From contig CM035350.1 of the NCBI GenBank assembly GCA_020137815.1, positions 62,001 to 126,000 of the forward strand: a DNA stretch of 64,000 nt. The letters run 5' to 3'. Every line of letters begins with the position of its first letter. The stretch's first letter is position 1. Under the pieces are notes generated by a model. It was given only the letters and a program-made list of their open reading frames with translations. It ran no database searches and had not been told where the DNA came from. The DNA comes from Hormiphora californensis (lineage: Eukaryota > Animalia > Ctenophora). Positions 30,799 to 62,700 of the stretch are shown piece by piece. Position numbers and translations under genes: made by a program.

Positions 30799-30876
<78 letters not shown>

Positions 30877-31050
30877 CTGGCTTGGCTGGCTGGCTGGAAA
30901 ATTTAATGGTGGACAATACAGCAATGAAAAATAAATAAATATTAAACATACTGAGTCCCGCCCCGTGCGAAGAGATCGATACTCGTAAAGATTGACATAT
31001 AAAACAGGAAGATGATCTCCACAAGCTTGTGGGGCAAAATTTGGTGAGTT

Positions 31051-32019: not shown

Positions 32020-32062
32020 TCAGAGCGATAAAAATCATTCGCAGCAACAGCAATGTGATCTG

Positions 32063-32099
<37 letters not shown>

Positions 32100-33101
32100 A
32101 GAGAATGAGAGAGGGAGAGATAGGGACAGGGAGACAGGGAGGAGAGAGAGAGGGATAGAACGAACAAGAATAAGTTACCCTCGAAAAATATGAGATTGAG
32201 ATACCGAGGGATAGAATGAGAGTTTGTGGTGATACCCGGCAGGAGCAAAAGATGTAAGTGGGTCACCTTTCCCGCCAACTAATTTCAATTAGTTTTGGCT
32301 TAATAGTTATCAATTAATTATACCAAAACTAATTGAAATTAGTAGGCCGGAAAGGTTGCCCTATGATCTGAGCTACCTTTGCCACCGTAACATTCACGGG
32401 GTACAGACAGGGTATAACAGATGCTTCTTCTATCTTCAAAAGGGAATGTACTGGTGCCAAAGGTAGCTCATTCGGAAAAGCAAACATGATTGATTCAGAT
32501 AAAGATTCGAGAAAATTTTCTCGGTTGGTACAGTAGACTGTGGTACCTGGGACCACTTCTTGCTCTGGGTAGGTAGATATGATGTAAAAATAGTATCGGG
32601 CGAGGGGGGTTTGATGGGGAATACCCGTCACACTCACCGGGGTTTCGTGGAGAGGGCCAGCCGGGACCACAGCAGATGGAACAAAGAAATGAAAATGAAA
32701 ATGAACTTCAACATTTATAATAGAGTCATATAAGTGACTCTACCCGCTCTCACACTATAGACATATGCAAACAAGTCATACATATCCTACAAGGCTGAGA
32801 GGCTTAGATCAGGGGGCCAACAGGCAAGAGATATTGGACTGGGTATGATTCTCGACCCTCAAGGTGGTTTCCGAGGGCAAATGGTGCGAGCCGAGTATAA
32901 AGGGAGGCGGAGAGACGTATCCCTTTGGCCTATGCTACAGTTGATTAGATACACGTTTCATACCCACCAATTATTATTATTATTATTATTATATCTAAAA
33001 TGTATACATTACATATACTGCCCCTTTTTTGTGGGCAAAACGGATAGCCATTAATAAGTCCCATTAGAAGTCTCTTCAGTGCACATGTCACTGATTAGAA
33101 G

Positions 33102-34127: not shown

Positions 34128-34174
34128 AACTTCTGCCTGCCCCTACGGGCGGTCTCAACATCCTGAGGACATAT

Positions 34175-34207
34175 CTCAAATTAATTTGTTTAAAGTAGTG
34201 TTGAAAA
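34175..34207 (-). other. Genomic copy of spliced-leader exon (5'-truncated)
   Basis: Minus strand TTTTCAACACTACTTTAAACAAATTAATTTGAG, followed by AT rather than a GT donor. Matches my recollection of the ctenophore SL; second copy at 59097-59140. Confidence 0.8.
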
Positions 34208-34228: not shown

Positions 34229-35945
34229 ACGGCCAGCGTTAAAATCTGGGTGTTTTGGGAGTGCTGACAAACGGTTTTTTAGGGTTAGGGCTAAAGTAGG
34301 ATTAGGGTTAGGGTTGGGGTTTGGGTTGGGGTTAGGCCTTGACATTCCCTACCAGAAAATTCACTAACCCCAACACCGATTGGCATCACTTTCCAGCAGC
34401 CGAAGAGAAGCTGCCGAAGAGAGAAAGGGGGTAACCGTATGAAGAGTTAATCGCGATGAGTCTCATTCACATTGGGTTCGATCATTTGCCCCCGGTGTTG
34501 GGGTTAGTAATAAACTTTGAATCAGCTAAAACGGTTGAGTGGTTTGGCGGTAAGAGCCATTTTAGTGAATCAACTTTTTTGGCAGCGCGCGGCGTCGCAA
34601 TGCATCGCGTTTTTGTCTTTTTTTGGCGCCCTTCTGCAAATGTGAGGGCGCGGCAGAGAAAAGACGGAAACACGATGTCACACCAGATAGAACTAGTAGG
34701 AGACACTAAAGTCGGATTTTTTGAAACTGTCATCCCCCTGAAATAGCAAAATAAACCGGATTTATGGTCATTTGCGAAATTTGAAAATACCCAGGGGGTG
34801 ACAGTTTCAAAAAATCCGATATTACACCCCAAACGGGCGCGATTATAATCTGGGTGCCTTGCAGCCTGTTTACAGGTGCGCGCTACCAAAAGAGTATACT
34901 TAGACCGACTTTTTTCAAACGGCTATGCCATGGAACCACATGGCCGATTTGAGTAAACTAAACAGTATCAGTTAGAGAATCGATAACCCTAACCGATAAC
35001 CACAAACCAAACCCTAACCAGACCCTGTCTGGCGCTGCGACCCACCTGAGCGCAAATTGGGGTCTGGCGCCGCCAGACAGACCAGACCCTAACGGATAGC
35101 CCTAACCCGTCGCGCGCGCCAAAACTACGAATTGTTAGCAATGAAAGGCACCCAGATTTTAACGTTTTCCACCCCAAACTACTAAAGTACACCCCAAACT
35201 ACTATGTCCCTCACTCGGGTTTTGTGAAATTTCCCACGGTCATAACTCCACTCCCTGATGAGATAGAGACTTGAAATTTGTTGTGTACGAAGAACTCGAT
35301 ATGATCTCCCTACAAAACAAATTTCAAGTCTCTATCTTATCAGGGGGTGGAGCTATGGCCGTCTAAAATCCGGTCGCGCGCAGCAAGGGACATAGTAGTT
35401 TGGGAGGACCTTTAGCGTGGTACGCGCAAAAAAATGCGCGCCACATACCTAAAATAACAGGTGTGTAGCGCGCATTTTTTTGCGTGTACCACGCTAGTGT
35501 CTCCTACTAAACGGGGGGGAAACGTTAAAATCTGGGACGCCGTTACGATCTGGGTGTTTGGTGGCCTGTTTACAGGTGCGCGCTGCCAAAAAAGTTGATT
35601 CACTAAAATGACTCTAACCGCCAAACCACTCAACCGTTTTGGCTATTTCAAAGTTTATCTGGAAGGAAATGTCAAGGCCTAACCCCAACCCAAACCCCAG
35701 CCCTAACCCTAACCCCACTTTAGCCATAACCCTAAAAAACCGTTTGTCAGCACTCACGAAACACCCAGATTTTAACGCTGGCCTAAAATCTGGGTGCCTT
35801 CCATTCATCGATTTTGGCAGTCGAGACGGGTTAGGGCTGTTGTTAGGGTCGGGTTAGGGGTTTGTTTGGGGTTATCGGTTAGGGCTATCGATTCTTTATC
35901 AGATACCGTTTAGTATCTCAAATCGGCCATGTGGTTGCACGGCTA
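34229..35945. mobile_element. Nested foldback/MITE cluster with degenerate (GGGTTA)n cores
   Basis: 34229-34350 is inverted at 35670-35785; 34520-34590 at 35578-35645; 34935-35160 at 35787-35940. The inner MITE at ~35190-35410 recurs at ~60425-60715. Confidence 0.7.
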
Positions 35946-35969: not shown

Positions 35970-36142
35970 GAAGGCTAAGGTTTGGGCTCCTTAACTGCTT
36001 TTCTCTGCGGAACAAAGCAATCGATATCCTGGAACTTGCAGTAGATGAAGACTTAGATGCTTTTGCACTAACAGAAACATGGATGAAAAAGGACGATGGT
36101 GCTCTCTGTGCTCTTTTCAAAGAAGCAGGTTTCAATCTTCAT
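35970..36142 (+). mobile_element. L2-type LINE APE endonuclease N-terminal fragment
   Basis: Manual translation RFGLLNCFSLRNKAIDILELAVDEDLDAFALTETWMK (N-x-x-S-L and TETW motifs). Confidence 0.8.
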
Positions 36143-36144
36143 AA

Positions 36145-36360
36145 ATCGAAACGAAACGAAACGAAAAAAAATGAGAAAAAATAAACGAAACGAAACGAAA
36201 AAATTTTGACCAAAAATAAACGAAACGAACCGAAACGAAAAAATTTTGACCAAAAATAACCGAAACGAAACGAAATCAAATAACCAAACCGAAACGAAAC
36301 GAAACAAACCGAACGAAACGAACCGAATTTTAAAACCGAACCGAACTGAACCGAAACATT
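36145..36360. repeat. (CGAAA)n-rich repeat; related segment at ~39515-39590
   Basis: Read directly. Confidence 0.85.
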
Positions 36361-38669: not shown

Positions 38670-39373
38670 TATTATCTCCTACAGACTGGACTTCAAAGCC
38701 TGTCTAATCGCTTATAAGATAGTCTATGGAATGGCACCAGGTTACCTCCAGGAAATGGTTCCTCTTGATAAAAGCTGGGGAGTCTCCAGGACAACAAGGA
38801 TGACTAGTGTTATTGATCCTTACAGATTAAAACACCCCAAGATGACCAGTATCAACGCCAATTCTAAATTGAGACGTAGGAGACTATCAGTATTTCTGCC
38901 TGCTATTTGGAATGAGCTACCCCTCGAGTTAAGGTCGATCCCCAACGTTGATACCTTTAAAGCTCGCCTGAAAACACATCTCTTCGTTGGTGCATTTGGA
39001 GTGGGTGATGGGGAACCCATGGCTGAGTTGTAATGTTTGTTGTAGTTGTGGGGTCTGCGGGCAATCAGTGTCATCCTCTCTCTAGTCATGTTATTAAATC
39101 ACTATCTGGTATCCTTTTTTGAGCAGGTGTGAGTATAGCGTGTTTAAAATTATATCTACAGGTTTATGGGACCAGTTATTCCCCCAGTTTGATAAGTCCA
39201 GTTAATTTGGTTTTCCATATATTGTCTTTTTCAACCAGAATTGTTCGTGTGCGATATTTTTACTCTAGGATATACCGCTCTGATGACTCGTCGGAACATC
39301 GCCAATATTTTGACATGTTTCCGTCGGGTATGGGCGGTATATAAGCGCGGAATATTATTATTATTATTATTAT
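38670..39373 (+). mobile_element. L2 LINE 3' end (ORF2 C-terminus, 3' UTR, (TAT)n tail)
   Basis: YRLDFKACLIAYKIVYGMAPGYL..PAIWNELPLELRSIPNVDTFKARLKTHLF; tail attattattatt at ~39352-39373. Confidence 0.88.
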
Positions 39374-40499: not shown

Positions 40500-40665
40500 G
40501 TTAAGGAGATATTAATTAGTATTCTGAATAATGAGTTCAGAGCGAGAATTAAAATAGGGAAGAAAATCGAAAAATACTGGGTTTGACCGGGAATTGAACC
40601 AGGGACCTCCAGAGAGAGAGAGAGAGACATGCTCGGAGCTATAAACCACTAAGCTACCAAACCCT
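40500..40665 (-). mobile_element. tRNA-derived SINE head
   Basis: Minus strand GGTAGCTTAGTGGT (A box) ... GGTTCAATTCCC (B box), with a CT microsatellite in between. Flanked by ~90-bp direct repeats at 40398-40485 and 40731-40823. Confidence 0.65.
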
Positions 40666-42417: not shown

Positions 42418-45400
42418 TTGATAAAACTTGATAAAACTTGATTGAATAAATAAACTTGATTCCAGGAATGTAAACGGTGTCAGTTTTTCAAGCATCCCCC
42501 TTTAAACTCGAACCTCCCAAAAAACCAGTCATGATAGAATGTTGTTCGGGTAGATAACCTTCAACAGGTGGATTGTCAGGGAAGTGGTCCAGCAACGGGC
42601 CCAGCAGGAGCTTGAACGTATTCCAGGTCACTGCTGTATAACTCTTTCGGCAATGTGTCCATAGCCGAGCGGCCCTTACAGAAAAGAGTGGAAGTATTTT
42701 GTGAGAATGACTTTCTGTGTCCACTGTAAAGAGTAGTGGTTACTTCGGGCTCGGATGCCGAGCCGTTGATGATGGTAAACCGGGTAGTAGGCTGTAGGGG
42801 GCAACCGTAGGAGTTTCCACAGTTTATATTCGATATTCGCTCCATCCGTCGTGAATGAAATCAGTCTAAGTTTCAGCTTTCCCCATAGTCAAGTGTGCCA
42901 TGTCTTCGATCCGCGGGAAAACGTCTCTGGATACTATCCAGCGCATGGGATGTCACCAATCTGGTAGGGGCGCCATAAAGGTGAGCAGGATTATAACTTT
43001 ACAACTTATTAGTTGGACTGTAGAAGTTGTCAGACTAGTGGTACTGACCTATATTTAAAGCTCTCAGTGCCAGGCGGCATCCTTGTGCTTCTGATGAGAT
43101 CTCATGGACATGTCTGTCCAAGAGCCATTGTTTGTTTAGAGTGAGCAGGTACTTTCACGTATCCGTTGGGCTCGTATTTTCATTTCCACTGGAGTTCACA
43201 TATGAAGCTTAAGGTCATGGGGAAAGGGGCAGTTCTTGAGAAGGATGTTCTGTCAGAGTAGTAGTGAATAACCTCAAAATTGTCCTCATGAAGTGTCAAC
43301 AGTTGGCTGCAGACCCACTCCACCACACGTGGAGAGCCTCTTGAATTCTGCTCCTGATTCTTCCGATCGCCCTCTTTTGGAGCTTGGTATCATCGCAAAA
43401 GGTTATGATTTTGCTGTGGAGTAATGGCCTTTGGAGATCAGAACGTAGCTGATTAAAGAGGATTGGTCCGAGACCGGTCCCTGAGGGACCCACTTTTGAC
43501 CAGCTCGAAGTTCGATTTTTCACCGTCAACGTAAAGGTTTTGGTACGACCAGAAGGAAGTACTTTTATCCAATTAAGTACTTTCCTTGATGCCTAGCTTT
43601 TCCAGCTTGGCAAGAAGATAGATGGTTGACCACGGTCAAGGCTTTGGAATAGTCCAAAAAATGATTACATCGACTTCGTTCCCGCTGTTTAGCTATCGAA
43701 AGAGTCCGTCCATGTATCAAGGAACGTGTGAGGCCAGCTTCGTTGATTCCTAAACCCCCCGGTGTGGCTATCTGGTAGAAGATTTTACTTTCAAGGGTGA
43801 TCCACCAACTTGTGTCGACAACTCGTTTTCAAATGTTTTTAGCAAGTTAGAAGTCCGTGAACAGGCGGTAGTTAAACAGCAAGAGTTTTGTCACCACGCT
43901 TGAAGATTGGTGTGAGTACTGCTTTTTCTGTTTGGGGGTGATTCCTCTTCGAAGGACCGCTCCCAAAGAAGAAAGAAAGAGTGGTACCAAAGCAAGAGTG
44001 CTTTACAAAGCACTGAGAAGTTAGCCGGGATGTCACCATCTGGTCCAGGCAGAAGCAGGATCAAGTTCCTGAGAGGTCCTTAATGCATCAGACGTAAATG
44101 GGAAATCCTCCAAAATCCGCCACGGCTATCCTCAACCCAAGAAAGACTTTTCAGCAGTTCCACCGTTGGATCACTGTGAAAGCAGGCAGAGAGTACTGTT
44201 TTTGCAGGAGTTTTCGTCCCTGCTGTGCGATTTTTCAGTGTGTCTTGTCTCTCCCGTGATCTTAGTGGCCGCCCAAATCCACACACGTTTGAGGAGGGGC
44301 AAATGTTTCGATTAACTCCAACCGAGTAAGGCACTCCGTCCCTGTTTTCTCTTTGATTTAGTTCGTTTGTACATGCCCAGGAAAAAGAAACATATCGGGG
44401 TTTCTCACCTCATTTCCCTTGATCGTCTGAGCCAATGGTCGTGTTGTTTTTGTATCTGTCCGTCTCATTTCGACTTGATAATATCCTCCATATGCGTTCT
44501 GTCGTCTATCGTCCTCAAGTGCTTGTGAGTTCGTCTGGAGTTTCTCAGCTTTGAGATGTTTAACCCCCGTTGACAGAAGACATTGCTCCAAGTTTGCTTT
44601 TACTTCGGCCTTCTCCTTCTCAGTGGTTCCAGGGGGCCTGAAATTTCTCCGCTGAAGTCTATGACGCGCCGGCCGCTGTGCTTGCATGGTGATTTGCAGA
44701 AAGTTAGATTGAAAAGTTCTTTTCTTTGCATTTGTCACCAACAGGGTCTCCAGAATCTTCACATAATGTCTGCAGTTTGTCCAATCAACAGAAGCAATGT
44801 CACATTCATTTTCTTCAAATTGGCTTTGTGAATGGTCCAACCCTCGAAAAACTCATGTTCGGGTCCCACTTTTTGATGGTGTCTACTGTTTCATAAGTGG
44901 TTTATCACCAGGGTAAGTCAAACATTCTGTGTTCAGAATGATCTTGTCTCTTCAGGTGTCCACAAAGTGATACGTATTGGGTGAGTTGGTCATTATACAT
45001 CAAGAGGTATTACTTCTTCTGGTTGGTTGTCTACGACCTGAGTTAGAAAAATTTTCCTCAATGAAGAGGTCACAAGTGCGTTGATATGATAAGCCGCCTA
45101 TGTTAGCAGCAGCTGACGGCAGGGTTATTCTTTCCAGGTGAAAACGGCAAGTTAGACGCCATGGATAAAATTTCAGGGCTCCCTTTCACTTGGGACAGGG
45201 ATCGATTTATCTGGAGATCATATAACTGTGATGAAGACTGGTCAGAGTGAACCGGGGGGACGGTAGACAGATGACAAACACAGTTTCGACTTACTAAAAA
45301 GCCACTAACAGACGGCATTCCCGGTCAATGAATGGTAGGCGTAGTGATGGGATGTCTCACGAAGTACAAAAAACAACCTCCTCCTTTCCGGTCAGGACGG

Positions 45401-46750
45401 TAAGAACGGAAGGTGCGTATCCTTGCAATTTTATTGGGCATCTGGCAATTAGTTTTTCAACCAGGACTCCGTTATTGCACGGCAACTGTTCGGCGGGGAG
45501 TTGGGTTGTTTAACAAAAAACAGCCTCGATGAAAAGGGAGTTCCACCGAAGTGTGCCCCTGCAGCCGTGGAAATACTTCTCCCATTCGTAGGATTAATAT
45601 TTGAGAGGGAAGATTTTGGCCTGTCGGGAGTTGTACGAAGTATCCTGGAGTGAGGGGTGGTACTGGAGGTAGGGTGTACTGCCACCGGCGGTGGCTTGTA
45701 GTGGTGGGCAGCTGGTTGTGCAGCATTTGATTCGTCTGGGGTGGGGCCAAGCTGGGAGGAGAATTCTCCATTCTTGTCCGCGCCTCAGTGACTCTCTCTT
45801 GCTTCCTTGAACTCCTTCAAGACAATGCTCAGAAAAACCGGATGTAGAGGTTCCCGGGTTTTGCTGCGAAACTGGTACGCACAATGGTGAAGCCGCTACT
45901 AGAGTGAGTTGTTCCTCCTGAACTCTCTCTTCTCGGTTCAGTGGTGGGGGTGTTAGGTGCCGTGTTGTCCTAATCAAACTTTCCTGACGGTCTTTCCTCT
46001 CCGGGTTTTCCTTTTCCCCGGGTGTACCCTTAGGTGGAGATGCGGCAATTCAGGGTTTAAGCATGTCGTCCTTCAATTCTCCGCTGGGACTGTGAGCCCT
46101 CAATAGTTTGGTGGGTGGAGTTTAGAGCACTTTGAACCCGACTTAGACTTCTACAGCCATGGCGGGAATGAGATCCTACAGTCTAAATTTCTGCAAACCT
46201 TTCGTGGAGAAAACGGCAGGTTTCCCCATTTCACTCTTTTCTAACGGATATCCCGTGTCTGCAGAGCCTTCTGCCAGGAATGCACAAGGGACCTTAGCTG
46301 ATCCCTGCTTGAGGCCCTCGCCAGTACAGTTCTTCAGTAAGTATGGGGTGATAATCTCTCAAACTGGCACTACACGGGATTCATCTTCCCGGAAAAAAAA
46401 AATAAACAGGTATCCTCGACCATTAGATCAGGACTACCATTTCGGACAGGAGCGGCAGGTCCAGTTAAAATCCCGTCAGTGGCTGAGTGATGGTGTACAG
46501 GGTGGGGGAGAAGATTGGAGGAAGATTTTGGCCACGCCTTCACAAGTCGTGGCCTCCCTGAAAAACAGGCCCCTTATATTGCGGGGTGGTGCATGAGGGG
46601 GTGCGCATGAGGGGGCGCAGCGCATTCCAACTGGACAAGGACCAACCTGTTTTGTTAGGAGCCAAACCAGTATTTGAATTATACCCACCACCGCCAATTT
46701 TCCTTCAGGCGAACCTAAAGAGGTAAGAATCTCCCGTCGCCCCTCCCCTC
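42418..46750 (-). mobile_element. Near full-length CR1/L2-group LINE, heavily frameshifted
   Basis: RT motifs GTGLGPILF and FCDDTKL (43296-43529); C-terminus FSVRAARLW..FKLLL..FPDNPPVEGY; (ATCAAGTTTT)n tail at ~42418-42445; endonuclease- and ORF1-like remnants at 45000-46700. Confidence 0.8.
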
Positions 46751-48499
46751 ACTCTTTCCTTAAATTTTTTGTTAGATGCTTACTTATTATGTGGATGCGC
46801 TTTACTAGTTCAACCAACGGCGCCCCAGATACGCACAGGCTAGATGAAATGTCACATCACCAACTTCATGGGCATCACCCATGATCCGGTATTAGATTCA
46901 CGCTATAATACTCCTACCACGCCACAGCCCATTACTATTGGCCACCGTTCATTTCTCTAAGAGTCTCCTTATGGGCTGTCTCGCTGTCTTAACACCCCTG
47001 TGCGCCCGATTCGCATGGTCTGTTATTGACTTGCTTGCTGGGACCATATGATCTTTTGCCTATAGCACAGCTTTCGGTGTGATATGACTCTATACGATTG
47101 TCTGTGTGGACGGCTCTGGATTGGCCTGTGTTTCATGCCAGCTGTTACATTAAACTTCCCCGTTCGGTTAGTGTGCTTATTTACATAGAGGTCCACAGTG
47201 GGTGTACATCACCCCTTATGTATACCCTACATACAGTCCAAGCATCACTATTATATTTGGCTTATGTTTACTCCACTTTGTCGCCTAAATCACACATATC
47301 AAGTCAGCGCCGGGTCCCGACCCCGTTATATCTGCACCTAGAATGTCTGTGCTTCCCCATGGACGATGCTAGTTCCTAGCCTCGGACTTTTTACTCTCGT
47401 CATTGTCGCTCAACGTATCGAACTTAGACCCTCAGGCCCCTGTCCTCTGACCAATGCTGGTCCCCTCACACACACCTGCAACAAACATCCACCACTCATA
47501 TCACCACGGCAAAACCCCGATACCACACTCACGCCCCCAGCTTTTCGTGCGGTTCTTTTGACTATTATTGTTGCTACTTTTTTTCAAGGTGAATCACCGT
47601 TCGGTTGTACGCGCCGGGACTTGGTGACCCCGTCATGACTCCGGCCGCGTCACTACACTCTTTGCGTGCGGCACACGACACGTTCCTAGCGCCACTGCCA
47701 GCCCGTTGCATTCCGGCGTGAGCTCCTCCTGTGTACATTACTCTGTTACATTCATGCCAAAAGTGGGTGGGATTTACTGCTACCTTCTCCAATCTTAACG
47801 CACCACGAGGCCCGAACTTTACACATACCCTGTACCTGCGCACCACGTGAACCGGGGAACGCGTTATCAAGGAGAGTGGCTGGAGAGCAGCTGGCATCAT
47901 TGATGGTTGAAGAGTGTAACGTAGGACAGTGTTGTTAAATGATGTGGTTTGACCCCTTTGCTTCAATGGCAATTTGAACAGTAGTATAATGGTATTTTAG
48001 CCCTTTTTAATCCAAATTTTTGGTCATATTTCCGCTAGAAAATTTAATTCTTAAATATGTAATAAAAGTGTTTACGTTTTTAGAATTTTTTTTTTTCAAA
48101 ACAAAATTTTTTTTTCAATTTTTGTTTGAAATTCGCCTGAAATGCATCTGATCTGATCCCGCTATCGGGGCCCAGACGTTTGCCCTAAGACATTCCTTGT
48201 CCTGTAAATGTTGTTTGAAAGTGCTTTGCCTTATCCCGAGCTGGTACGGGGCCAGCAGCGTTTGCCATAATGTTGTATACAGCTCCGGAAACGTCAGGAC
48301 ACCGCAGCTATCAGACTGCAACCACCTTAACCACCACGGGACGGTGCCCCCCAGCCCAGTCTTGGGACTGGCTCAACAACTTTTAGTGTTGCCTAAAAAA
48401 AATCCTTTCCAAATGGCAAACAGGTTTGAAAAAGAGCAAAGATATCCCTGCTTTTTGTTAGACGCTTCTTTCTAAAACTTCACTTTCTCTCCCCTTGTA

Positions 48500-50800
48500 G
48501 ACTCGTTTCATGATGAACCACCTGCCAAACCCGTTGCTCGAGCTACGGAAAGCTATTCGAGGATCTTCGAGTCTGATGGACCAAGAGTCCAAACCTCTGG
48601 ACTTTTCAAATCATCAGAAAGTTACTTAACACATTTTGTCGACTAAACGTGCAAGTCTTAGAGGATGATTCAGAACCTAAAAGACTCCCTTCCCTACTCA
48701 ATTCCCATCCTGATTCCGCTAGAGACCTTCACTCCCCCTGTTTATTAACAGCTTCTTAAAATTTTGGTCGAAGAGTGTTGATTGATTGCGTGATGGAAAT
48801 TTAATGGAATGAATGACTACCAGGTTCTTGTCGTCATCAAACCAATAGTTCCTGCCCTTCAGCCTGTACCTACAATCCTTGAGGTTTATTAACAGTCACA
48901 AATGTTCGACGTTTCTTTACAACACCGTTCAGAAAATTTTCTGTTCCGCTCTCAGACTGTTCAAGAAGTGATTTCACATATGAATCAAAGAGGTCCATTA
49001 AGAAAACTCTGCTAAAAAACGATAGGATAAATCCTTTGAGTTGGCGAAAAGTAGTAACTTTGGATATGAATCTGCGAAACGGGAAGGAATTTGTGTGGCC
49101 TTGCTTTAAACTCTGTTGCTGAGTTCAACTCTAAATCTCCATTGCTTGATGGTGACATCTTGTTAAGGTAGTTTCCAGACGGTGCTCAGCTATATTGACG
49201 GAGACATAATTTTTGGGGGAAGTTGGAAGAAACTCTTGGTGATTTGGGGAGGAATGATGTACTATATCCCCAGTAACTCGCCAACTCTACACGTTCTCAA
49301 GCAAATAACAGCATATTGTACAATTGCTGAAGGCGAAGAGAGCCAATGTTCTTCGTCAGCGTCCTCTAAAAAAGAGTAGTGCTGAAAACGGATAATTGAT
49401 GTTCATCAAGGCATAACGAACATTCACCGGAAGGATTGTCCATAGCCAAACATTTACCGGGCCCGGTCTCTTTCTATCGAACACCGGTGATGGCGCCATT
49501 CCTGGGGCGAATGCTTCGACGTGACGCCTCTTACGCCTTGAGAGAGGAAAAAAAGTGTGGTTCTAAGGAATCCCAGAGAAAACGACTCATGAGGTGATCA
49601 TCAAATCCTAAGACTCCTTCGCGAGTGAGTTGTGACACTGATTCAATCAGTCAGGAATGGTAGCCAAGTTTACGCGAATGTCATTGGCTTGTGCTAGGAC
49701 ACTATTCTTGTTTTCTGAACTGAACGATCAAATCACTCTTGTCATGGATTTGTTCGCAAAGTATGGAACCTGGGTCCGCAAAATTTTAACCAATCGTATC
49801 AAACAACATCCGAGTCTTGGGTATTTATTCAGCTCCATCGTACTTGGCAACTTTAGCACCCACCAGTGCTAAAAGGTGTTGGTACTTCGACGAGATTTGC
49901 AATATTTAAGAAGAGATCTTGATTCAGGAAATTTGGGAATTTGGCGTTGTAAGAACACGTCGTAAAGAGGCAATCTCTCAATGGCTCCATCTTGTGACAC
50001 ATCCCCCCGACGATATGCTGCTGAGAACCTTTCCGAATTCTTTCTGGCAAAAATCAGTTATCTATTATTGTGGTGCTGGTATTTCCATACTAATCCAATT
50101 AACAGAAGAAGGTTCTAATCATTAGGTCATTTGTCTGTGAACTCATGATCTGCATGAGACAGAACCTCCAGAGCTACTTCTGACTATCTCTCTGTCTGTC
50201 GCGTAGTTTCCAGAGTGCAACAGACAGAATTTTGGGCAACAATATGGAAGAAGAAAGATTAACCACTTACTTCTTCAATTCCGCATTTACAAGTGGAGAG
50301 GGGATGGTGAGAATCCTTGGAATAGAAGGGGCACCAGGGGTGAGGTGGAGGTTACCGAACCGATCTGTCATTTCCCATTCGAAAAGCATTTTGGCTTAAG
50401 TTTGAGGAAGGCGAACCGAAACTATAACGCTTCCATCTCAGCCCTCAGTCGCATCTTGGAGGCCACAGCTGATTCTGGTAGGGTGGAAAAGGTGGAAAGG
50501 TGCTGGACGAGTGCCACTCTGAAAGAGGTCCTGGAGTGGTGTTGTCCGGGGCAACACCATGTACCAGGTTGACGGAGTGTTCAAATATCTTGTGCAGGCC
50601 GATGAGTCAGGGGGACAATCAGTCTAAAGATTCTAAGCGTTCCGAGGATTGGTCATTAGTTTGCGTATTCGGGATAAGCTCAGCCGGTGTTGATGTTGGG
50701 TATCTGACAGATTCTCTTCTCTGTTGAAACCCCTAATCTGCCACCGGGAACCATAATACTCGCATAACTGAAACTGATTCAACATTAAGGACACTGGTTA
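48500..50800 (+). pseudogene. Intronless LRR-like/BTB family gene, copy 1 (many indels)
   Basis: Colinear with copies 2 and 3 throughout; starts MxEPxAKR after a pyrimidine tract + AG. Confidence 0.55.
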
Positions 50801-51984
50801 TGACTATTGCCGAACATTATCAGTTATTTTTGGGCCAACAACAGTATATGAGGGGTGGTGCGTTCACCATACGTTGGTACCAGATATTCTCGCCCAGTAG
50901 AACGTCATTTAGCGGATCCCAAATTTTGTAAATCGTGGACAATTAGGATGATTCGAGCCAAGTGAGGTACAGTGAACTGAATAGTGAACTTGACGACCCA
51001 GTCCTTCTGGTGACAGTGCGAGGCGTCCAAGTCCTTTGTATGATATTGGTAGTACTTATAAATGCGACGTCTTGGATGGAATTGTGACCCACGGGAGCTC
51101 TATACTGAATTATTTTTACTACAGGATAGTTTTTATCATTATGTATACTACTCTTTTATATCCCCTGCCGCGTGGATGGATAGCACCCACCCAGATTTTA
51201 GCACGTGTTTAAATATATACCTCTAGATTAATTGGAAATAGTAACTCGAGCATTACCCGCGAGTGGTGGTTGTTGCAGCTAATTTGTCAGATTCCGCATC
51301 CATACTAAACTACCCTACTTAAATTGTCGAGAACGTTGAGCCGTGCAACGATCTCGTGTATCCTAGCAGATGATTCATTACGTGATGCAGTGGCAGCCCT
51401 AACGAGCCGTCACGAGCGCACCGTCGAGGACGGGCTCAACGTTCTCATAAACGCCGTTTAAGGTCTCGCATTTTTACTAGGGGTTGTTGCACCGTGGTTA
51501 GTCCTCATATATGATAGTGATCAACAATATCATAGAATGTAGAACTCCTATATATTATGTAGTAACTTACTTAGTATACCTAGAGACCAAACAGCGGCTA
51601 ACTTTAGCGCACCAATCTCACGTTTCAATGCCATGAATGCGGTCAGATTACCGTCATGTGTGACAAGCTGGACGGGAACATGAAATGAGTAGGGAAATAC
51701 AGCACTTTGATCATATGTGCAAATAACTGTTTTCCGTTTTTGTCACAATAAGGCGTGTTATTTTTCAATCAATCCACCTGTACTGGTTTTCTATTTCACT
51801 AGTCGGATAATCCTAGTAGTAATTGCAGGACCTCAAACCCCCATGACATTCGCACCTTATTTCCAAACCCACTACCATGAGTGTATAACCCCCACCTTCT
51901 ACTCCCCTGAAGTAGATTGTAGACTACGCCCTGAATCTGACAGTCGACACATTCTAAAGTCACTTTCTTTCTCCCCCCTTGATA

Positions 51985-54230
51985 GGAAGCGTTTCATGAG
52001 AACCACTGCCAACGCCGTGCGTCGAGACATCGAAAAGCTATTGCGAAGATCTTCGGTAGGCCAACTGGCCCAAGAGTCCAAACTCTGGAACACAAATCAT
52101 TCAAAAAGTCTTTCACGAATTTTTTCGACTATACTGACAACATCTTTGGAGTGATAAGGGTCTAAAAGAATCTCTTTCCCTTACTCATTTCCCATCATGA
52201 TGCGTTTTCAGAAGAACCTCCTCCCCCTGTTAACAACAACCTTTTAAGGATTTTGGTTGGATGAAGCCTTAGATGAATAAATATATTTTGGGTGAATAGT
52301 GAGTGAATGCAATCGTCGTTGTACACAACATTTTGCCACTCCAGCTGTTCCGTTCATCCTTGAGGTTTCTTAACGCCGTTAACGGTACTAGTGGATTTTA
52401 TGTTCAGCTCTCACCGTTCAAAAAGGTTTGCACTATCTTGAATTAAAGATGTCTAAGAAAAACTCTGCCTAAAAAAACGATAGACTGAATCTTTATTGAG
52501 TTGCGAAAGTTTTGCAAACTACGTGGTAGGTTTTCAACGGAAGGGACGAATTTGTGCCCCTGCTAATTTCTGTCTATCCGAGTTAACCTTAAAAACCACT
52601 CTACATGCTGGATCGTAACATCTGGCTTTCAGATTACCACAAGGTGCGTCAGCTGTTATTAACATAAGAGGTTATTCATCAGTGGGGAAATTGAGAGGAA
52701 AACTCTTGGTTGTTTTGGTGAGGGAAATATGTATACTTATCTCCAGAAAGTAGCCGAACTCTACCATACTAGTATACCTTGGCGGGGATGCCAAAATGAC
52801 CTTGTACAAAACTGCGGAAGCCGAGAAGAAACAAAGCCTTCGCCAAGCGTGTCTTCAATGAGGAAGTGCTGATAAGATATCTGACAAGGTATTGTAAAGC
52901 GGTTGGTAACATCAACCGGAAGGGGATGACCATAGCCGAAGAGATTTACCATCTCTGTCTTCTTTTTAATCGGACCCCGTGAACCTATGGAGAACTGGGT
53001 GTAGCTTCACGTGATGCCTCTAATCTTCATGAGAGAAGGGAAAACTAAGGGTGTCCTAACGGACATCCCAGAAGAAACTCTAAGGGAAGTGATCATAAAT
53101 TGTCTAAAGAGCTCTCGCGACTTGGTTGTGGAACATGATCCAATCAGTCAAGTGGAAGGGTAGCCAAGTTAACGCAAAATGTCATTGGCTGGCTGAGGAC
53201 ACAGATCGTTGCTGTTTCCGATTGAAGATCATATCACTCTTGTTATGGACGTTGGCGAAGTATGGAACACTGTTCACCAGAAAAATATTCGGGTCTTAGC
53301 CCAAAACATGTTTACTACTTGGCAGAATTTCAACGCACTCGTTATTGAAAGTATTGGTATTCAGAGATATACAAGTTAGAACACGGAAGCTTGCTGGTCA
53401 ATAGTGTATTGGATTTGGCGACTTTTCGTACGGAGGGACGTTTCTCATTGTGCCTCCCACTTCGGAACATCCCCGACCGATTAGTGGTAAACTCTCCGAA
53501 TTAGTCTGCAAAAAGCATTCGTGAATCGTCTAATCATCCTCTGGAAATTCATGGTTCATTCTGTCTGTGAATCACTGATCTGCATGGACTTATCCTCAGA
53601 ACTAACTTTCTCCGACTATTTCCTCGTCGTTGTACGGTATTCCAGAGTGTGTATAGCGAGTTTGGGTTTTCCAAGTGGAAAAAATAGCTCTTCATCTTAC
53701 ATCCTTCTAGAGATACAAGTGGAAGGGATGGTGAATCCTTGGAGAGGAAGGGGCACCAGGGTGTGGAGGTTACCGAGACCAAGATCTTGTCATCTCACCA
53801 TGCTGAAAAAGCATGCTTGCTTCAAGTTTTGAGGAACGGTGAACCCTACGCATGACCGTGTCCCTCACCCCTCAGCGCATCTTGGAGGCCCTCAAGCTGA
53901 TTCTGGGTTGAGGAATGGAAAGGGTGGTTGAAGAACTGCACAACGAAACGAGGTCCTGGGAGTGGATGTTGCCGTGGCAAACCATGTACCAGGTTGACGG
54001 AGAGTGTTCAAATACCTTTGGGAGGCGATGAGTAGGGACAATCAGTCTTAAAGAGTCTAAGCGTCCGATGATTGGTTTGGTTGAGTTTCGAATTCGGACG
54101 AAAGCATCCATTCGTGGTTGATGTTTGGTATCTGACAGATTTGTCCTTGTTGAAAACCCTAAATCGGCCACTCGGACCTAATCTTCTTCTGCAATAACTC
54201 TGAACGATCAAGCCATTAAAGGACACTGAC
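51985..54230 (+). pseudogene. Intronless LRR-like/BTB family gene, copy 2 (many indels)
   Basis: Shared anchors ccactgccaa, cccatc(c/a)tgat, atcactcttgt(c/t)atgga, aagcatgcttgcttcaagttttgaggaa. Confidence 0.55.
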
Positions 54231-54779
54231 AACTATCCTGGTCACAATAGTCAGTTATTATTGCCGACAGCAACAGAGGACCCCTCTCTGTTCCAAATAT
54301 TTTCACAAATTAAAGTCATTAAATATTTGATGGTAAACAATATGATTATGGGAGAGTGATAAAGTAAGATAGTACTCGATTAAGAAATTTTAGGCATTTT
54401 ATTATTAATAAGTAAAACTTTTTTCAAACTTCAAAGGCCGTCCTTGTCGACACTTATATATTTATAATTACGCAAACTGTGTGTTGTCAATTGATATACA
54501 TACTGTAACATGGAAAAAATTCCCAACTCAGACCTATTCAAACCACCTATCACGAAATCCATTCTTGGAAACGTAACTAAATACAGTGCCCGCACTTCCT
54601 GGTATAACCAGGTTTTTAAGCATTATTTGTCTCAGATAGAACACACATCCTGGTTAAAATCCTGTGTAAATCGAAAGGTTCCGGCTGCATTCCCTAAGGT
54701 TTTCTAAACTCATTTAAATCCCCCTAAACTATTTCTGCTCACGCTCTCTCTATCTATCTCCCTTTAAGACGTTCAATTC

Positions 54780-56940
54780 ATGACAGAGCACCCCCAAGCT
54801 CAAGCTTATGCACGACGACGATTGTGAGATCTACGTTGCCTGCTGGTGAAAGAGTGCCAGGACTTCTGGGATTACAAGCGATAGAGAAATCCTCAATGAA
54901 ATTTCTCGACTTTTACGGCATAGCTTGGAAGAAAGAGTTTGTAGGTGCTCAAAAGTTCCCTTCAGATACTCATTCCCATCCTGATTTCTTGCGCGAGTAA
55001 CCTTCCCCCGCCTGTATTTACAGCCTCTTAAAATTTTGAATGTGCTGGCACACACTGAGTGTAACGACTATATCGATCTTCGTCGTCGACAATTTCAACA
55101 CATACCACAGGGCTACCTCCCATCCTAAAGTTTTGAACAAACAACGTCATATAGTATCAAGTCAAGGTTCCACTATTTGCCGTTCAGAAGGTTAAATTAT
55201 CTGGACTCACGAGCGTTGGCTAAGAACACTCTCGACTAAAAAGATAAACTGATCTTACGGAGGGGCTAGATGATGAGAGGTTTTCGCTGTAGGGGAGGAT
55301 ACATTGAAGCATTTTTGACCTGGTCTGGTTAACTCTGTTGGCCGAGTTAAACGCTGACACCATGTTTGGAAGGTGCATATCTAAAAATTACTAAACAAAC
55401 GTTCATAGTTCTTTAAGCAGCATAAAAATATGTCTGACGAGTGGTCTCGTTGAAAAGTAAAAGAAACTTTGTGATTTGGTGGAGGAGATATGGTGTTTGT
55501 GTCCAAGATAATCTAGCTAAACTGTTCGTAGTGCCGATGACGGTGATGCCAAAATGGGTGTTATACACAACCGTGAAGAAAGTAGAAACAAAGCCTTCAT
55601 CACCGTTCTCAATCTAAATGGGTTGTGATGATAGATGGTGTATTGTTATTGAGGCATGTCGAAACATAACCGGATAGGGACTGCCCATCGCTGAAGTAAT
55701 TTACCTCGCACTGTCTGCTTTGATATCTACACCCCGTGATTGTCGGACAACCTGGGCGAAAACTTCTACGTGATGCCTCTAATCTTCCTGGAGAGGGGAA
55801 ACTAGGTGTCTGATGGAATCCCAAAGAAACAACTTCACGAAGTTATCATACATTTCTAGAAGTCCTCGCGACTTGGATTGGGACCGGTTCTGACTATAAT
55901 TCCTCTGAAAAAAGTGAAGGAAGTTGCAGCGACAGTAACAAACGAGTTAATAGGCTCTGTGAGGAACAGTGTTCCGTATCTCTAAATAAAGATCACATCA
56001 CTCTTGTCATGGACCTGTTGTCAATGCGGTACCGGGTCAACCGCGTTTGGAGATTTATAACTCTGGCCAATCTTACCATTGGTTACTCAAACACAATCCC
56101 CTGATTAGCGGGCTTTAGTTCTTTGCCATATCACAAACATACGGCAATCTCCGAACTGACCACATGAGTCTTTTGAACTTTTCTGCAATGGATGTTGGAC
56201 ATGTCACGTACTTCGGAGGAGATAAGTCCGTAAAATTCCCAGCAGAATATCTGGCGGAACTTCGATATGTTAATAGTTTTGCGGGATGGAATACTGAGGC
56301 AATGCTTCCTTCCGTCTGTAAGCATAGAGCTCAGAGAGTCTGATCCTCCGGAATTACTTCTTCGATTGTTCTCGTCTCGTCCGTTCCTTCATAGGGCGTA
56401 CAGACTAACTTGAGGAACCGAGAGAGGTTAGAATGAACCGCGAGAGGTTAAGAATGAACAAGGGAATGGATGGTGAGAATCCTGGAGGAGGAAGGGCCAC
56501 CAGGGGGTGGAGGTTAACAACAAGATCTGTATCTCCCATTCTGAAAAGCATGCTTGCTTCAAGTTTTGAGGAAGGTCGAACCCGAACTAACCGTTACCTC
56601 AGCCCCCTCAGACGTATTTGGAGGTCCCTAAGCTGGTTCTTGTGAGGGTGGGGAAAGGGTGCTAACGACCATTGCAAACCGAAGAGGTCTGGGAGTGGAT
56701 GTGCCGTGGGCTACAATGTACCAGTGTAGGACGGGCAGTGTTCAATACCTTGTAACGGTGATGTGTGAGAAGAAAAGATCTACGATGTCGATGAATGGAT
56801 GGTTGAGTTTGCGATAGGAGCAAACACCCTGCGTGGCTAATGTTGATCTGTGTGAGGTTTTCTCTCGTTGTGAACCATAAACTAACGCCTCAGACCTCAT
56901 CTCCGCAATAACTGATCTGTCACAGCTTAAATGACAAGGA
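54780..56940 (+). pseudogene. Intronless LRR-like/BTB family gene, copy 3 (many indels)
   Basis: SPILKSMLASSFEEGRTRT in ORF 56433-56645 is BTB-like; CRNITG at ~55655 is LRR-like. Confidence 0.55.
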
Positions 56941-57609
56941 GAACTACCTTGTTAACATTATTAGTTATTTTTGCAGTCAGCAGTGTTCGATTTGGGGTGA
57001 ACGGAGCTTTTCCCTAATCTGCGCCAACTCCCACTGACAGAATTTCAAGGGAAATACTTTGATCAGCCTAATTGATATTTTGGGGAAAGAGTGATGAAAG
57101 TGAAATAAGACTCTGAAGAGTAGAGGGGCTACTGGTATTTTTAAATTTTTACCAGATATCCAACACAATAGAGAACATCTTGTTTTTAAAACTAATTTTA
57201 TTTTATAAATTTTATATTCTTAGCCTGTATTGTCGTGTATGGAATTTTATTAATTCATTTTACAGCAGTACAATTGAGTTTTAATCAACCTAACTGCTAG
57301 AAGCACTAGCCAGCAAGCTCGACCCGCCAGTCGCCTACACAACCTGAACAAACCCCAAAAACACAGCCCACCCGTCCCGTGGCCGATTATGACCCCCAGA
57401 TGAAAAGTAAACAGCCTATCACTCGTGTAAATGTATTTACACGAGTTGATTATATATGCTGTACTGAATAAAATACACAACCCAGAACTCACTAAAACGA
57501 AATTCCGAAGTCAGTATCCTCCAGCCCATTATTATAGTCCTTTTCGCTATCACCGAACACCTTTTTATTACTCGCAAACCGTTTACAACTTCACTCTCTC
57601 TCTCCCCTT

Positions 57610-57870
57610 AGGACGTAAAATTATGACAGAGCCACTGCCAAGCGCCAAGCTCGATGCATCGAAGACGATTGTGAGGATCTACGTGCTGCTGGTGAAAGAG
57701 TCCAGACTTCGTGGGATTACAAGCGATAGAGAAAGTCCTCAATGAAATTTCTCGGAATTTATTAGCGAGCTTGGAAGAGGTTGAGGTGCTAAAACAGCTT
57801 CCACCTTCAGATACTCAATTCCCATCCTGATTTCTCGCAAGAACCTTCCCCCCTCGGTTAATCCCTACAC
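57610..57870 (+). pseudogene. Fourth, truncated copy of the LRR-like/BTB gene
   Basis: ccccttag|gacgtaaaattATGACAGAGCCACTGCCAAGCG matches the starts of copies 1-3; homology stops at ~57870. Confidence 0.6.
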
Positions 57871-59140
57871 AGGCCCTGGTGTGGCGTCCTCGTCACCATA
57901 CACGCACTACCTCCAACTTCCAGGTACTCTCAGCTGAGGGACAGAAACTCCTAGCATTTAATAGGCGAAAGTTGACAGGGCTGGGTTCCTGCTAGTCCCC
58001 AGGATTGTGGGTTTTCTCCCTGCTCCGTACTGCCGCGCAGAAACGACTTTAGTCCAAAAACTGGGTCATCACCGACTGTTATCTCGGCTTCAGAACTTCC
58101 AGTTTCATCTCCAAAAATCATGGGTCACCCTCTCGTCTGGCGGAGAACTTTTACAGCCGGTTCTGTCCCTGTTTCCTGGAGCTGCTTGGGCGTTTGAGTT
58201 AAAATCTTCCGCCCGGTCTCCAGCTGCCTGGGAGTGTGCTTTCCTGGTCGTCCTGGACGGTCGATCTCTCTCCCGCCTTCAACGATCCGTTTGTATGTAG
58301 AAGGTGATTCAGTGTGCACATTTATCATAGCATCTCCGTTTACCTCAGATCCCTTTGCATAGGGGAGGGTGGTAGAACTTACCGAACCACCTTTCACGCA
58401 TCCAAAGCGTTCGATGCCCATTATAGTTACAAAACCTCTGCAGAGTCTCGGGTGGAGTTTCGGACATGACCTCCCCTCTACTCTGGTTCCATTTCGTCAT
58501 AGCGGCACTTCCGGTTGAGAAAAGTGCTTACACGTTCTCTGGGGTCAGTTGCAGAGTTTTCCATCAATCTGGTTCGTCTTTTCTCATCATCGGGCTTATC
58601 TCTGGCGTTTCAAACACAACAGTGATGTCGGTTTAGGCTCATTTTCTCCAGCAAACGAGCAACCCACACTGAGCCTTACGGTTCCCCTTAATTGACTGCT
58701 GATTGAGTGGGGGCCCTTGTCCGCAAAGAAAACAAGATAAAGGGGGGTGTGGTACCAGTTTTAACCCTGTAATTTCACCACCACTTGACAGCCGATAGGA
58801 AACCAACCCCTTCAATACGTAGGACGATCTTATCCGCCAACTCCGTATTTTCTCGGCCTTTTCCATCCCGCCCGACAAGTAAACACGTTTAGAGCCTAAG
58901 ACCGGACCCAGTTCCTCCACCTATTCTTACTGCAATGGAGGCCACATTAACGGTATGATCGGCATGGTAGTTCGTAGGCCTCAATCATACCTTCCCCTGT
59001 GCTCCGCCAGCATTTTTCAGCTCCGCCAGTAACTCTTTGACGGTCGGTCATTGGTCATTTGGCTGCGTCTACAAGGGTTGAGGAGGGGTGCCGCTCCTCA
59101 CAATTAATTTGTTTAAAGTTAGTGTTGAAAAGTTTGAAGT
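57870..59140 (-). mobile_element. 5' part of a LINE-like element (Cys-rich ORF1 remnants) beginning with an SL exon
   Basis: SL-like 44-mer at 59140-59097. Downstream CFLCGQG and C..G..K-FYHP..C-like zinc-finger remnants, reconstructed across frameshifts. Confidence 0.55.
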
Positions 59141-59719: not shown

Positions 59720-62700
59720 GGTAAGTCGGAAGAACCGGTCCGTTCTCTAGAGGCGCTCATGAGGTCTCATGAGTGTGTCATGAGTGATCATGAGGTGATC
59801 ATGAGCGAATCATGACGTTTTTAGGTGTTTCAACGTCTCATGAGCGCTCATGAGTGTATCATGAGTGTATCATGAGTGTCTCTGAGCGTTATGAGGTCTT
59901 CATGAGACCTTGCTCATGAGCGGCTCATGAGACTATGTCCATCCCATCTCTGTTCATGTCTCATGAGCGCTCATGAGACATTTGACCTATCATGTGCTCA
60001 TGAAGTGATCATGAGACATGTCTCATGAGACATATGTCTCATGAGACGTTAGGTTAATTGGGGGGTTAGGGTTGGGTAGGTTGGGCTTTCCTTTAGTTAG
60101 GGACCCGTAGAGGGTAGGGCTAGGTCCAAGCTATAATGGGTAACCTAACCTATCCCTATGGCGTCCCTAGCCCTAAAGGATAACCCTAACCCTAACCAAC
60201 TAACCCAACGTCTGAGACATAGTCTATGAGACCAGTCTCATGATACATGTCATGAGCCACATGTAGGTTCAAAACGTCTCATGAGCGCTCATGAGACGTG
60301 AAACACCTAAAAACGTCTCAGAGCGGTCATGATACACTCATGAATACACTCATGACACCTCATGATACACTCATGAGCGCCATGAGAGGACACGGACAGG
60401 GTTCTTACGACTTACCAGATAAAGTACACCCCAAAACTATGTCCTCACTCGGGTTTTGTAAAGGGGGACCTTAGAGACTTGAAATTTGGAGGGCGGAAGA
60501 ACTAAAGGTCCCCCAACTACTCTGTCCCTTGCTGCACGCAGACCGGATTTTTAGACGGCCATAGCTCCACCCCTTAAGATTAGAGACTTGAAATTGTTTT
60601 GTAGGAGATCATATCCGTTCTTTGTACAAACAAATTTCAAGTCTCTATCTCAGGGAGTGAGTATGATCGTGGGAAATTTCACAAAACCCGAGGGGGACTA
60701 GTAGTTTGGGGTGTTGTACTTAGCAAAGATCTTCGAACCTCCAAATTTCAAGTCTCTATCTATTCAGGAACCGATTTGGTAAGTCGAAGCAAACCTGTCC
60801 GTTCCTATCATGAGCGCTCATGAGTGATCATGAGTGGTCAGAGTGTATCAGAGGTATATGAGCGCTCATGAGACGTTTTTAGGTGTTTTCAATCGTCTCA
60901 TGGCCTCAGAGTGTATCATGCGTGAGTCATGAGGCTCATGAGCGCTCAGAGTGCTCATGAGACCTGCTCATGAGCGCTCATGAGACATATGTCTCATCCC
61001 ATCCTATGTTTCATGTCTCATGAGCGCTCATGAGACATTTTGACCTACAGTGCTCATGAGTGGTATATGAGACATGTCTCATGAGACATATGTCTCATGA
61101 GACGTAGGGTTAGGGGGTTTAGGGTTTGGGCTAGGGTTGGGCTTTCATAGGTCTAGGGACCCGTGAGGGTAGGGGCTAGGTCCAGCCTTATAATAATGGG
61201 TCACCCTAACCCTATCCTATGGGTGCCCTAGACCTAAGGATAACCCTAACCCTAACCCAACTCTAACCCCTACGTCTCATGAGACATATGTCTCATGAGA
61301 CATGTCTCATGATACACTCATGAGCACATGTAGGTCAAAAGAAGTCTCTGAGCGCTCATGAGACGTTGAAACACCTAAAAAACGTCTCATGATGCGGTCA
61401 TGATACACTCTGATACACTCATGACACACTCTGATACACTCATGAGCGCTCATGAGAGGAACGGACAGTTCCTTCCGATCTTACCAGATAAAGTACACCC
61501 CAAACTCATGTCCCTCACTCGGGTTTTGTAAAGGGGGGCCTTTAGAGACTTGAAATTTGGAGTTCGGAAGAACTTAAAGGTTCCCCCAAACTACTATGTC
61601 CCTTGCTGCACGCGACCGGATTTTAGACGGCCATAGCTCCACCCATGATAAGATAGACTGAAATTTGTTGTAGGGAGATCATATCGAGTTCTGGACAAAA
61701 ACTTCAGTCTCTCATCTCAATCAGGGAGTGGAGTATGATCGTGGGGAAATTTCACAAACCGAGTGAGGGACATAGTAGTTTGGGGTTTTTGTTACTTTAG
61801 CAAGATTCGTAACCTCCAAATTTCAGTCTCTATCTCTTCAGGAACGGCATTTGGTAAGTCGGAAGAACCTGTCCGTTCCTCTCATGGAGCGTCATGAGTG
61901 TTATCATGAGGGTCATGAGTGATCATGAGTGTATCATGAGCGTCATGGACGTTTTAGGTGTTTTTCAACGTCTCATGAGCGTCATGAGTGTATCATGAGT
62001 GTGTCATGAGTGTATCATGAGCGCTTATGAGTGCTCATGAGACCTTGCTCATGAGCGCTAATGAGCACATATGTACCTCACCCATCTCTGTTTGTCAATG
62101 TCTCATGAGCGCTCAGAAGTTTTGACCCTCATTGCTCTGGTGATCATGAGATCATCATGTCATCATGAGACCATGTATCATGAGACGTTGGGTTAGGGTA
62201 GTGGGGTTTACGGTTGGGCTAGGTTAGGGCTTCCTTAGGTCTAGGGACCCGTAGGAGGGTAGGGCTAGGTCAAAGTCTATGAGTCAACCCTAACCCTATC
62301 CCTATGAGTCCTAGATCTAAAGGATAACCTAACCCAGCCCAACCGTAAACCCAACCAACCCTAACCAACGTCTCTGAGACAATGTTCTGAGACAGTCTCA
62401 GATACACTCATGCAGCACATTAGGTCCAAAACGTCTAATGGACGCTATGAGACATTGAAACGAGATGGATGAGACTATGTCTCATGAGCCCTCATGAGCA
62501 GGTCTCATAGTCATCATGAGCGCTCATGATACACTCATGACACACTCATGATACACCATGAGCGCTCATGAGACGTTGAAACACCTAAAAAACGTACTCA
62601 TGAGCGCTTACATGATACACTCATGAACACTCATGACACACTCATGATACACTTATGAGCGCTATGAGAGGAACGGAAAGGTTCTTCCGACTTCCCCGGA
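59720..62700. repeat. Three tandem ~1.07-kb units: TCATGA-rich foldback MITE plus a second MITE as spacer
   Basis: Each unit bounded by gtaagtcggaagaacc..ggttcttccgacttac (~59721-60416, 60779-61485, 61853-62695). Spacers match 35190-35410. Confidence 0.85.

Follow-up and report, generated by a model that had tools for sequence, protein, structure and literature searches.

The spliced-leader copy and the element downstream of it

The window analyzed here, a 64-kb stretch of Hormiphora californensis DNA, contains near its right end a sequence resembling a spliced leader (SL), and the question that it raises is whether this sequence belongs to an SL RNA gene, to a retrocopied host mRNA, or to a transposable element. 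As the reference we used the 43-nt SL exon of the SL RNA gene in metagenome locus L022. Alignment to this exon revealed that the minus strand from 59138 to 59097 corresponds to SL nucleotides 4–43 with two 1-nt insertions and no mismatches; it is thus a genomic copy of the ctenophore SL exon, and it forms the 5′ end of an element. The copy agrees with the SL given for H. californensis in the excerpted text of PMC8527503, and the same SL core heads 23 host cDNAs among metagenome loci. Only one other copy was present in the window, at 34175–34207 on the minus strand, where nucleotides 11–43 are preserved exactly. The first-pass annotation had described the sequence at 59097 as the one at 34175–34207 with two 1-nt insertions and a 5′ extension, and the alignment of both copies to the L022 exon bears this out. 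The 44 letters that it had quoted (59097–59140) are indeed found on the minus strand, but the first two (59140–59139) mismatch the SL and belong to the flank. The two copies aligned with a local score of 58, compared with maxima of 22–34 in 20 simulated 64-kb sequences, and for the SL-core pattern 100 shuffles gave an expectation of 0 matches.

The copy is followed by GAGCGG and not by GT. It did not show the identity of an SL RNA gene, as the GT donor is absent and the L022 unit matches nothing beyond the exon; searches of the window and of L022 against Rfam returned no match to an SL. The missing GT had already been recorded in the annotation, but it is a weak test, because GT does follow the SL in two of 10 SL-headed metagenome elements (L015 and L021).

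Downstream on the minus strand, a short 5′ UTR (59059–59096) with a pyrimidine-rich stretch ending in TAG leads to the first ATG at 59058 and to a frameshifted LINE ORF1 (58117–59058) of a family designated B, which is also represented by the SL-headed metagenome locus L020. A frameshift-tolerant alignment of this ORF1 with that of L020 scored 161 (54 of 138 residues identical, four frameshifts and one stop), whereas four shuffles scored 32–45 and four unrelated LINE proteins 32–36; the tblastn E value against L020 was 4e-5. A family-B profile built from the L020 ORF1 and 13 homologues matched two frames at E values of about 1e-6, with a score of 223 over 58855–58117 (profile positions 78–362). 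Its N-terminal 160 positions scored 56, the highest value among 38 control stretches being 37, while its first 75 positions, covering the first ~200 nt of the ORF, stayed at control level and were not independently alignable. Since profile position 78 falls at 58855, the ORF is expected to begin at a distance of about 10 nt from the end of the SL; the first ATG lies 38 nt away. Pfam gave nothing significant on three single frames of 57899–59100 or on the family-B ORF1s, whose sole atlas lead (0.89) was to a cluster with 10% zf-CCCH. We take the motifs of this ORF1 to be a PHD-like Cys cluster followed by CCCH-type fingers. The annotation had held the Cys-rich stretches after the SL to be unrelated to the ORF at 33102 near the other SL copy; in agreement with this, the family-B profile scored the region, and a profile of family C, to which the 33102 ORF belongs, did not.

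ORF1 is followed at 57905–57964 (minus strand) by what are probably the first ~20 codons of an ORF2 APE endonuclease, in which 11 of 20 residues match L020 ORF2. This match is weak alone (tblastn E 0.39) and stands in the expected order and place. L020 ORF2 carries an Exo_endo_phos endonuclease domain and is 87% identical to P0017, a 973-aa protein containing endonuclease and reverse transcriptase (RT); L020 thus has the SL–ORF1–endonuclease layout that the 59097 element probably shares, and the full RT exists in that family. RT is absent from the 59097 copy, which is broken at ~57,860, where a deletion or a mis-join has occurred: at 57853–57904 the LINE adjoins a truncated copy (57591–57852) of a ~3.2-kb tandem unit. 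Three to four copies of this unit, 67–83% alike, occupy ~48400–57852, the last one cut by the LINE, and their single frames had no Pfam match. The 3′ end of this copy, where a tail would lie, is missing; a (TAA)n tail is found in the 34175 element and in locus L032. We presume family B to be CR1-like, an assignment that follows its C-terminal motifs.

The 59097 element is thus a 3′-broken LINE, probably of the APE type, headed by the SL. A processed retrocopy of a trans-spliced host zinc-finger gene might also be headed by an SL, such SL-tagged host retrocopies being common in dinoflagellates according to excerpts of PMC12014239, and no Pfam family names the ORF; the chance of this is nevertheless minute, because an endonuclease–RT ORF follows ORF1 in the relatives and a putative endonuclease start follows it here. 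The downstream sequence is accordingly a LINE, as the annotation had proposed, and not a host gene retrocopy.

We also examined the sequence quality of this part of the window. The differences between repeat copies beyond ~40 kb were mostly 1-nt indels, gaps outnumbering mismatches by 17 to 5 in ~213 nt at 60.5 kb, by 13 to 7 at 61.6 kb and by 40 to 19 at 63 kb; three repeat pairs left of 38 kb had 1–5 gaps and 3–32 mismatches. The longest stop-free frame per 8 kb fell from 346–644 aa at 16–40 kb to 123–164 aa beyond. The region ~40000–64000 is therefore indel-rich, like an unpolished long-read consensus, and coding frames are broken there. Two insertions in 42 nt fit this indel rate, and so those in the SL, like the frameshifts of the ORF, are probably read errors and no guide to the age of the 59097 copy. 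The Cys-rich ORF1-like stretches reported by the annotation were confirmed by the profile match, but its word "remnants" may overstate their decay in so indel-rich a region. An array of long palindromic CATGAG-rich repeats lies at 59720–62700, together with a ~230-bp palindromic repeat that also occurs at 35182–35415.

These features invite the suspicion of an assembly or read chimera, in which an SL copy and a LINE fragment foreign to it were fused within an error-rich stretch: the right ~24 kb is indel-rich, the 3′ end of the element breaks against the truncated tandem unit, and 59096–58856 is not independently alignable. However, the same SL–ORF1 join is found in the independent relative L020, the position of the profile match sets the ORF start close to the SL end, with the first ATG 38 nt away, and the pattern holds at 34175 and at 10 other loci irrespective of the 59097 copy. 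We therefore regard a chimera as very improbable.

Leader-headed elements elsewhere in the window and in other ctenophore DNA

Using the exact 29-nt SL core as the query, we found 34 matching metagenome loci, which represent other ctenophore DNA and not the window's genome. They comprised 23 host cDNAs, one SL RNA/5S gene repeat and 10 SL-headed LINE-type elements. In the host cDNAs the SL stands at the contig end before host coding sequence, with a host-gene Pfam family in 20 of the 23. The gene repeat, L022, contains an SL RNA gene (the exon followed by GTAAG) in a 778-bp tandem unit in which it alternates with 5S rRNA (263–381, 693–735, 1041–1159 and 1471–1513). Nine of the 10 loci in the two assemblies without host cDNA were SL-headed elements and the tenth was the SL gene, with no host retrocopy. 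Neither SL-core nor protein-led scans of viral contigs and genome contigs yielded any locus.

The 10 SL-headed loci fall into four ORF1 types with no cross-match among them: family A with a zinc-knuckle ORF1 (L003, L007, L008, L015, L021 and L034), family B (L020), family C (L016 and L032) and a fourth, PHD-like type (L031), the last being ORF1-like by a weak atlas lead alone (0.91). An endonuclease was visible in seven of the 10, and RT was reached in four. The RTs of families A and B are 23–28% identical and were split at 100/100 in an 8-row tree without named references; we take family A to be L2-like by C-terminal motifs. SL-headed retroelements had been proposed for at least two families, which proved an understatement, as four unrelated ORF1 types and two RT groups are involved (with the 34175 element being ORF1-only and not a whole LINE). 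Because the loci were chosen by the exact SL core, diverged or SL-less heads are excluded from the sample, and the survey therefore tells what SL copies head and not what share of LINEs carries the SL. Four of the 10 loci had less than 20 nt of non-SL flank, and no family was present in two copies with different flanks. In L020, 364 nt precede the SL core and the contig begins with GTAAG, and the other four loci of its assembly are host cDNAs; this contig could be an unspliced read-through transcript or DNA.

The second SL copy in the window heads an element of family C. Its open frame (33102–34142, minus strand) is an intact ORF1 with a coiled coil, an RRM and a CTD, and the predicted model of the protein (mean pLDDT 70) folds like human LINE-1 ORF1p, which accounted for the top 10 Foldseek hits (E 2e-6 to 1e-4); a PDB sequence search did not place the family, although the fold search did. 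The 3′ UTR (32970–33101, minus strand) contains a small hairpin near 33040–33020 and a (TAA)n tail near 32992–32970, an arrangement common to L032. In both the hairpin and tail come next after ORF1, and the 34175 element contains no ORF2. All 11 homologues of the 33102 ORF were on contigs of 1.1–1.5 kb, as would fit a family made of ORF1 alone. Both the 34175 element and L032 are non-autonomous, SL-headed, ORF1-only elements; no target-site duplication was seen by eye at either. They presumably resemble HAL1-type ORF1-only elements, in which an L1-ORF1p-like protein alone is followed by a tail, but they differ from these in their SL head and (TAA)n tail. A GCCC-N-GGGC hairpin was noticed in the 5′ UTR of four of the 12 SL-headed elements (34175, L016, L031 and L032), one of which has an unrelated ORF1, and in none of the 23 host cDNAs; a similar hairpin lies in the 3′ UTR of both ORF1-only elements (33040–33020 in the window, and in L032).

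Two of the four ORF1-bearing elements in the window lack the SL. One is a near full-length, frameshifted CR1-like LINE at ~42530–47100 on the minus strand (~42.5–47.1 kb), with a CCCH ORF1 (46286–45909), an endonuclease and an RT extending to ~42530; the best SL score in 46.2–48.5 kb was 21, and a real SL scored below 30 in 0–7.5% of error simulations. The other is an intact family-C ORF1 at 31051–32019 (minus strand), between inverted repeats (30651–30724 and 32230–32304) with (CT)n arms; ahead of it, within the region 30651–32356, runs a long tract of pyrimidines that ends in CAG. Either element could be 5′-truncated. The annotation had called SL-headed retroelements a recurrent strategy of this genome. 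Recurrence is supported by the two elements in the window and, from other ctenophore DNA, by the 10 metagenome elements, but the habit is not universal, given the two window elements that are without the SL.

Some further features of the window were recorded. A 3′ fragment of a family-A-like LINE lies at 38674–38970 (plus strand; 15 of 16 residues match L007), an isolated endonuclease-start fragment at 35978–36160 (plus strand), and a weak tRNA-like match at 40579–40663 (minus strand; Rfam, 33.5 bits). Ahead of the ATG, at a distance of three bases, each of two single-frame F-box/LRR paralogues (16447–18348 and 25570–27504, minus strand) has a pyrimidine tract with TAG, a probable host trans-splice acceptor.

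Boundaries of the heads and the origin of the leader

We next compared the boundaries of the 12 heads, namely those of the 10 metagenome elements and the two in the window. All 12 end exactly at the splice donor and keep 33–43 of the 43 nt, with the element 5′ UTR and ORF1 directly after; 11 lack 1–10 nt of the SL 5′ end. In the 10 metagenome loci, the 14 nt located 5′ of the search pattern, which were not subject to selection, follow the SL gene as far as one break. SL-gene upstream or intron sequence was found at none of the 12 heads. Their 5′ flanks did not match the SL gene unit and shared one 12-nt match at most among each other, and the two visible 3′ flanks are not SL intron. At p<0.05, no decayed tandem SL relic was detected after any of the 12 heads, as against one among the 23 host cDNAs, and a second SL upstream of the head was present in none of the six loci with enough flank.

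Heads consisting of the exon only, with no SL-gene flank, are what reverse transcription should produce from a capped RNA that had been trans-spliced; insertion into an SL gene would not be expected to produce them. Elements that insert into SL genes, the CRE/SLACS/CZAR and NeSL groups, do exist (described in the available portions of PMC3636483 and PMC4640811), and the tandem SL/5S array would offer them a target, the SL being in that case target DNA and not part of the element. Their involvement here has a negligible probability, however: no head enters SL-gene upstream DNA, the 5′ flanks are unlike the SL gene unit, the two visible 3′ flanks are not SL intron, and the endonuclease is not restriction-like but of the APE type, ahead of RT in an element with two ORFs. 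We consider it likely that 59097–59138 is the SL head of a broken APE-type LINE, which belongs to one of several unrelated SL-headed ctenophore families and was copied from trans-spliced RNA.

The proposed route would comprise four steps. An inserted copy would be transcribed, probably by read-through from host or neighboring promoters; the spliceosome would trans-splice a fresh capped SL onto the element RNA; the element RT would copy this RNA by target-primed reverse transcription and run off near the cap, losing 0–10 nt; and the DNA copy of the SL would then be the likeliest acceptor for the next round. That trans-splicing followed by reverse transcription has taken place at least once in each lineage is very probable. 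Whether the fourth step operates, with re-splicing in each cycle at the copy's own AG, is on the sequence evidence an evenly balanced matter.

Several findings count in favor of such renewal. AG occurs in the SL only at nucleotides 1–2 and 42–43, so re-splicing at the last AG of the copy would regenerate an identical 5′ end and leave no tandem relic; none was found. Without repair, the loss of 1–10 nt of the SL 5′ end seen in 11 of 12 heads should ratchet, which favors renewal each cycle. In family A the SL is conserved in the 14 unselected nt while the ORF1s (31–61% identical) and the UTRs (35–81%) have diverged, and the SL–UTR join is fixed: L003, L008 and L034 share its exact position, and those of L015, L021 and L007 lie no more than about 3 nt away. 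On the other side, GAG is a rare 3′ splice site, and the GAG at the end of the SL lacks a pyrimidine tract, unlike the tract–TAG acceptors of two host genes in the window. Each of the 10 UTRs contains 1–7 downstream YAGs, whose use would erode the 5′ end, and this therefore also counts against renewal. Over the 30 nt after the SL, the pyrimidine fraction was 0.59 in LINE heads versus 0.48 in host cDNAs (p 0.008), but p was 0.35 over 60 nt, and we draw nothing firm from this excess. TTTCAG or TTTTAG, a strong acceptor-like word whose use would likewise erode the 5′ end, stands directly after the SL in three of the 10 heads (L016, L020 and L032), from two ORF1 families.

The SL could instead have been captured only once, if the ancestor of each family was trans-spliced a single time and the SL was thereafter inherited as DNA, with transcription from an internal promoter and selection for an SL-like 5′ end. 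A fixed join would then need no GAG acceptor, the family-A UTRs of 145–215 nt between SL and ATG leave room for a promoter, the GCCC-N-GGGC hairpin is present in 4 of 12 heads as against 0 of 23 host cDNAs, and the excerpted text of PMC12014239 has the TTTT box of the SL proposed as a promoter in dinoflagellates. Nevertheless, we judge this history unlikely: unless repaired, the 5′ losses in 11 of the 12 copies should accumulate, the SL has stayed the same next to UTRs that diverged by 19–65%, several independent captures would be required, and families B–D have only 35–48 nt between the SL and the ATG.

Known systems and the meaning of leader-headed LINEs

A close precedent for copying from trans-spliced RNA is in dinoflagellates, in which SL-tagged retrocopies of host genes with tandem relics (DinoRL) have been reported (PMC12014239, excerpted text). 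There, too, an SL-capped RNA is reverse-transcribed, the SL exon heads the DNA copy, and this copy can be trans-spliced again; the ctenophore elements, as processed copies, likewise begin with an SL encoded in DNA. The two differ in that DinoRL copies derive from host mRNA and acquire tandem relics through an internal AG (same excerpts), whereas the ctenophore DNA copies found are LINE-type elements, apart from the SL gene itself; AG is absent from the interior of the ctenophore leader, and relics were found at 0 of 12 heads. In Hydra, about 30% of the Iso-Seq reads from transposable elements carry an SL (excerpts of PMC12220107), so that there as well, in a non-bilaterian animal, the host's trans-splicing machinery acts on transposon RNAs; the available sections of that paper treat transposable elements in bulk at the RNA level and say nothing of LINE families whose DNA begins with the SL. 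The CRE/SLACS/CZAR elements of trypanosomatids and the NeSL elements of nematodes are also non-LTR retrotransposons that adjoin an SL exon in DNA, but they belong to the R2 group, have a restriction-like endonuclease and insert into SL genes (portions of PMC3636483 and PMC4640811), while the ctenophore elements have an APE, occupy unrelated sites and lack SL-gene flanks. Elements of the CR1 group (the CR1 and L2 clades) share with the ctenophore elements two ORFs, an APE followed by RT, a varied ORF1, a 3′ hairpin, a short-repeat tail and no clear target duplication; the difference is that the 5′ end of the ctenophore element is the host SL, and the likeness to these clades is one of motifs. 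In the literature searched, outside which lie Repbase, the Hormiphora supplements and Derelle et al. 2010, we found no animal LINE families described as beginning, in DNA, with an SL, and the parts of PMC7986045, PMC12460157 and PMC4558846 that were available contained nothing on SL-headed LINEs.

In the excerpts of PMC8527503, the H. californensis leader is on 56% of Iso-Seq reads and has 718 genomic copies, the corresponding motif in Mnemiopsis has 491, and the copies are treated as spliced-leader loci that attract read mapping, without a statement in those excerpts of what they head. These copies represent the same SL, dispersed in hundreds, and the present analysis predicts that many of them are LINE 5′ ends. 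A tentative extension, to which we give somewhat less credence than to its opposite, is that much of the ctenophore LINE complement (CR1-like, L2-like and ORF1-only dependants) may be promoterless, with the SL exon serving as a self-renewing acceptor that makes read-through RNA capped and exactly full-length, and that most dispersed SL copies may be LINE heads and not SL genes.

The 59097 copy itself is a poor specimen, and its value lies in the pattern and in the prediction on the dispersed SL copies. Several ctenophore LINE families having the SL as their common 5′ end would constitute a variant, in an animal, of the known retroposition of SL-capped RNA. LINEs must rebuild their 5′ end after each reverse transcription, and the known answers to this need are internal promoters or self-cleaving ribozymes; if the proposed route is true, host trans-splicing would be a further answer, reached in an animal by several families at once. 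Heads of LINEs would account for many of the dispersed leader copies in the two ctenophore genomes, 718 and 491 in number. Such copies would not be SL genes and can mislead first-exon annotation, and the SL would provide a simple tag for finding full-length ctenophore LINEs.
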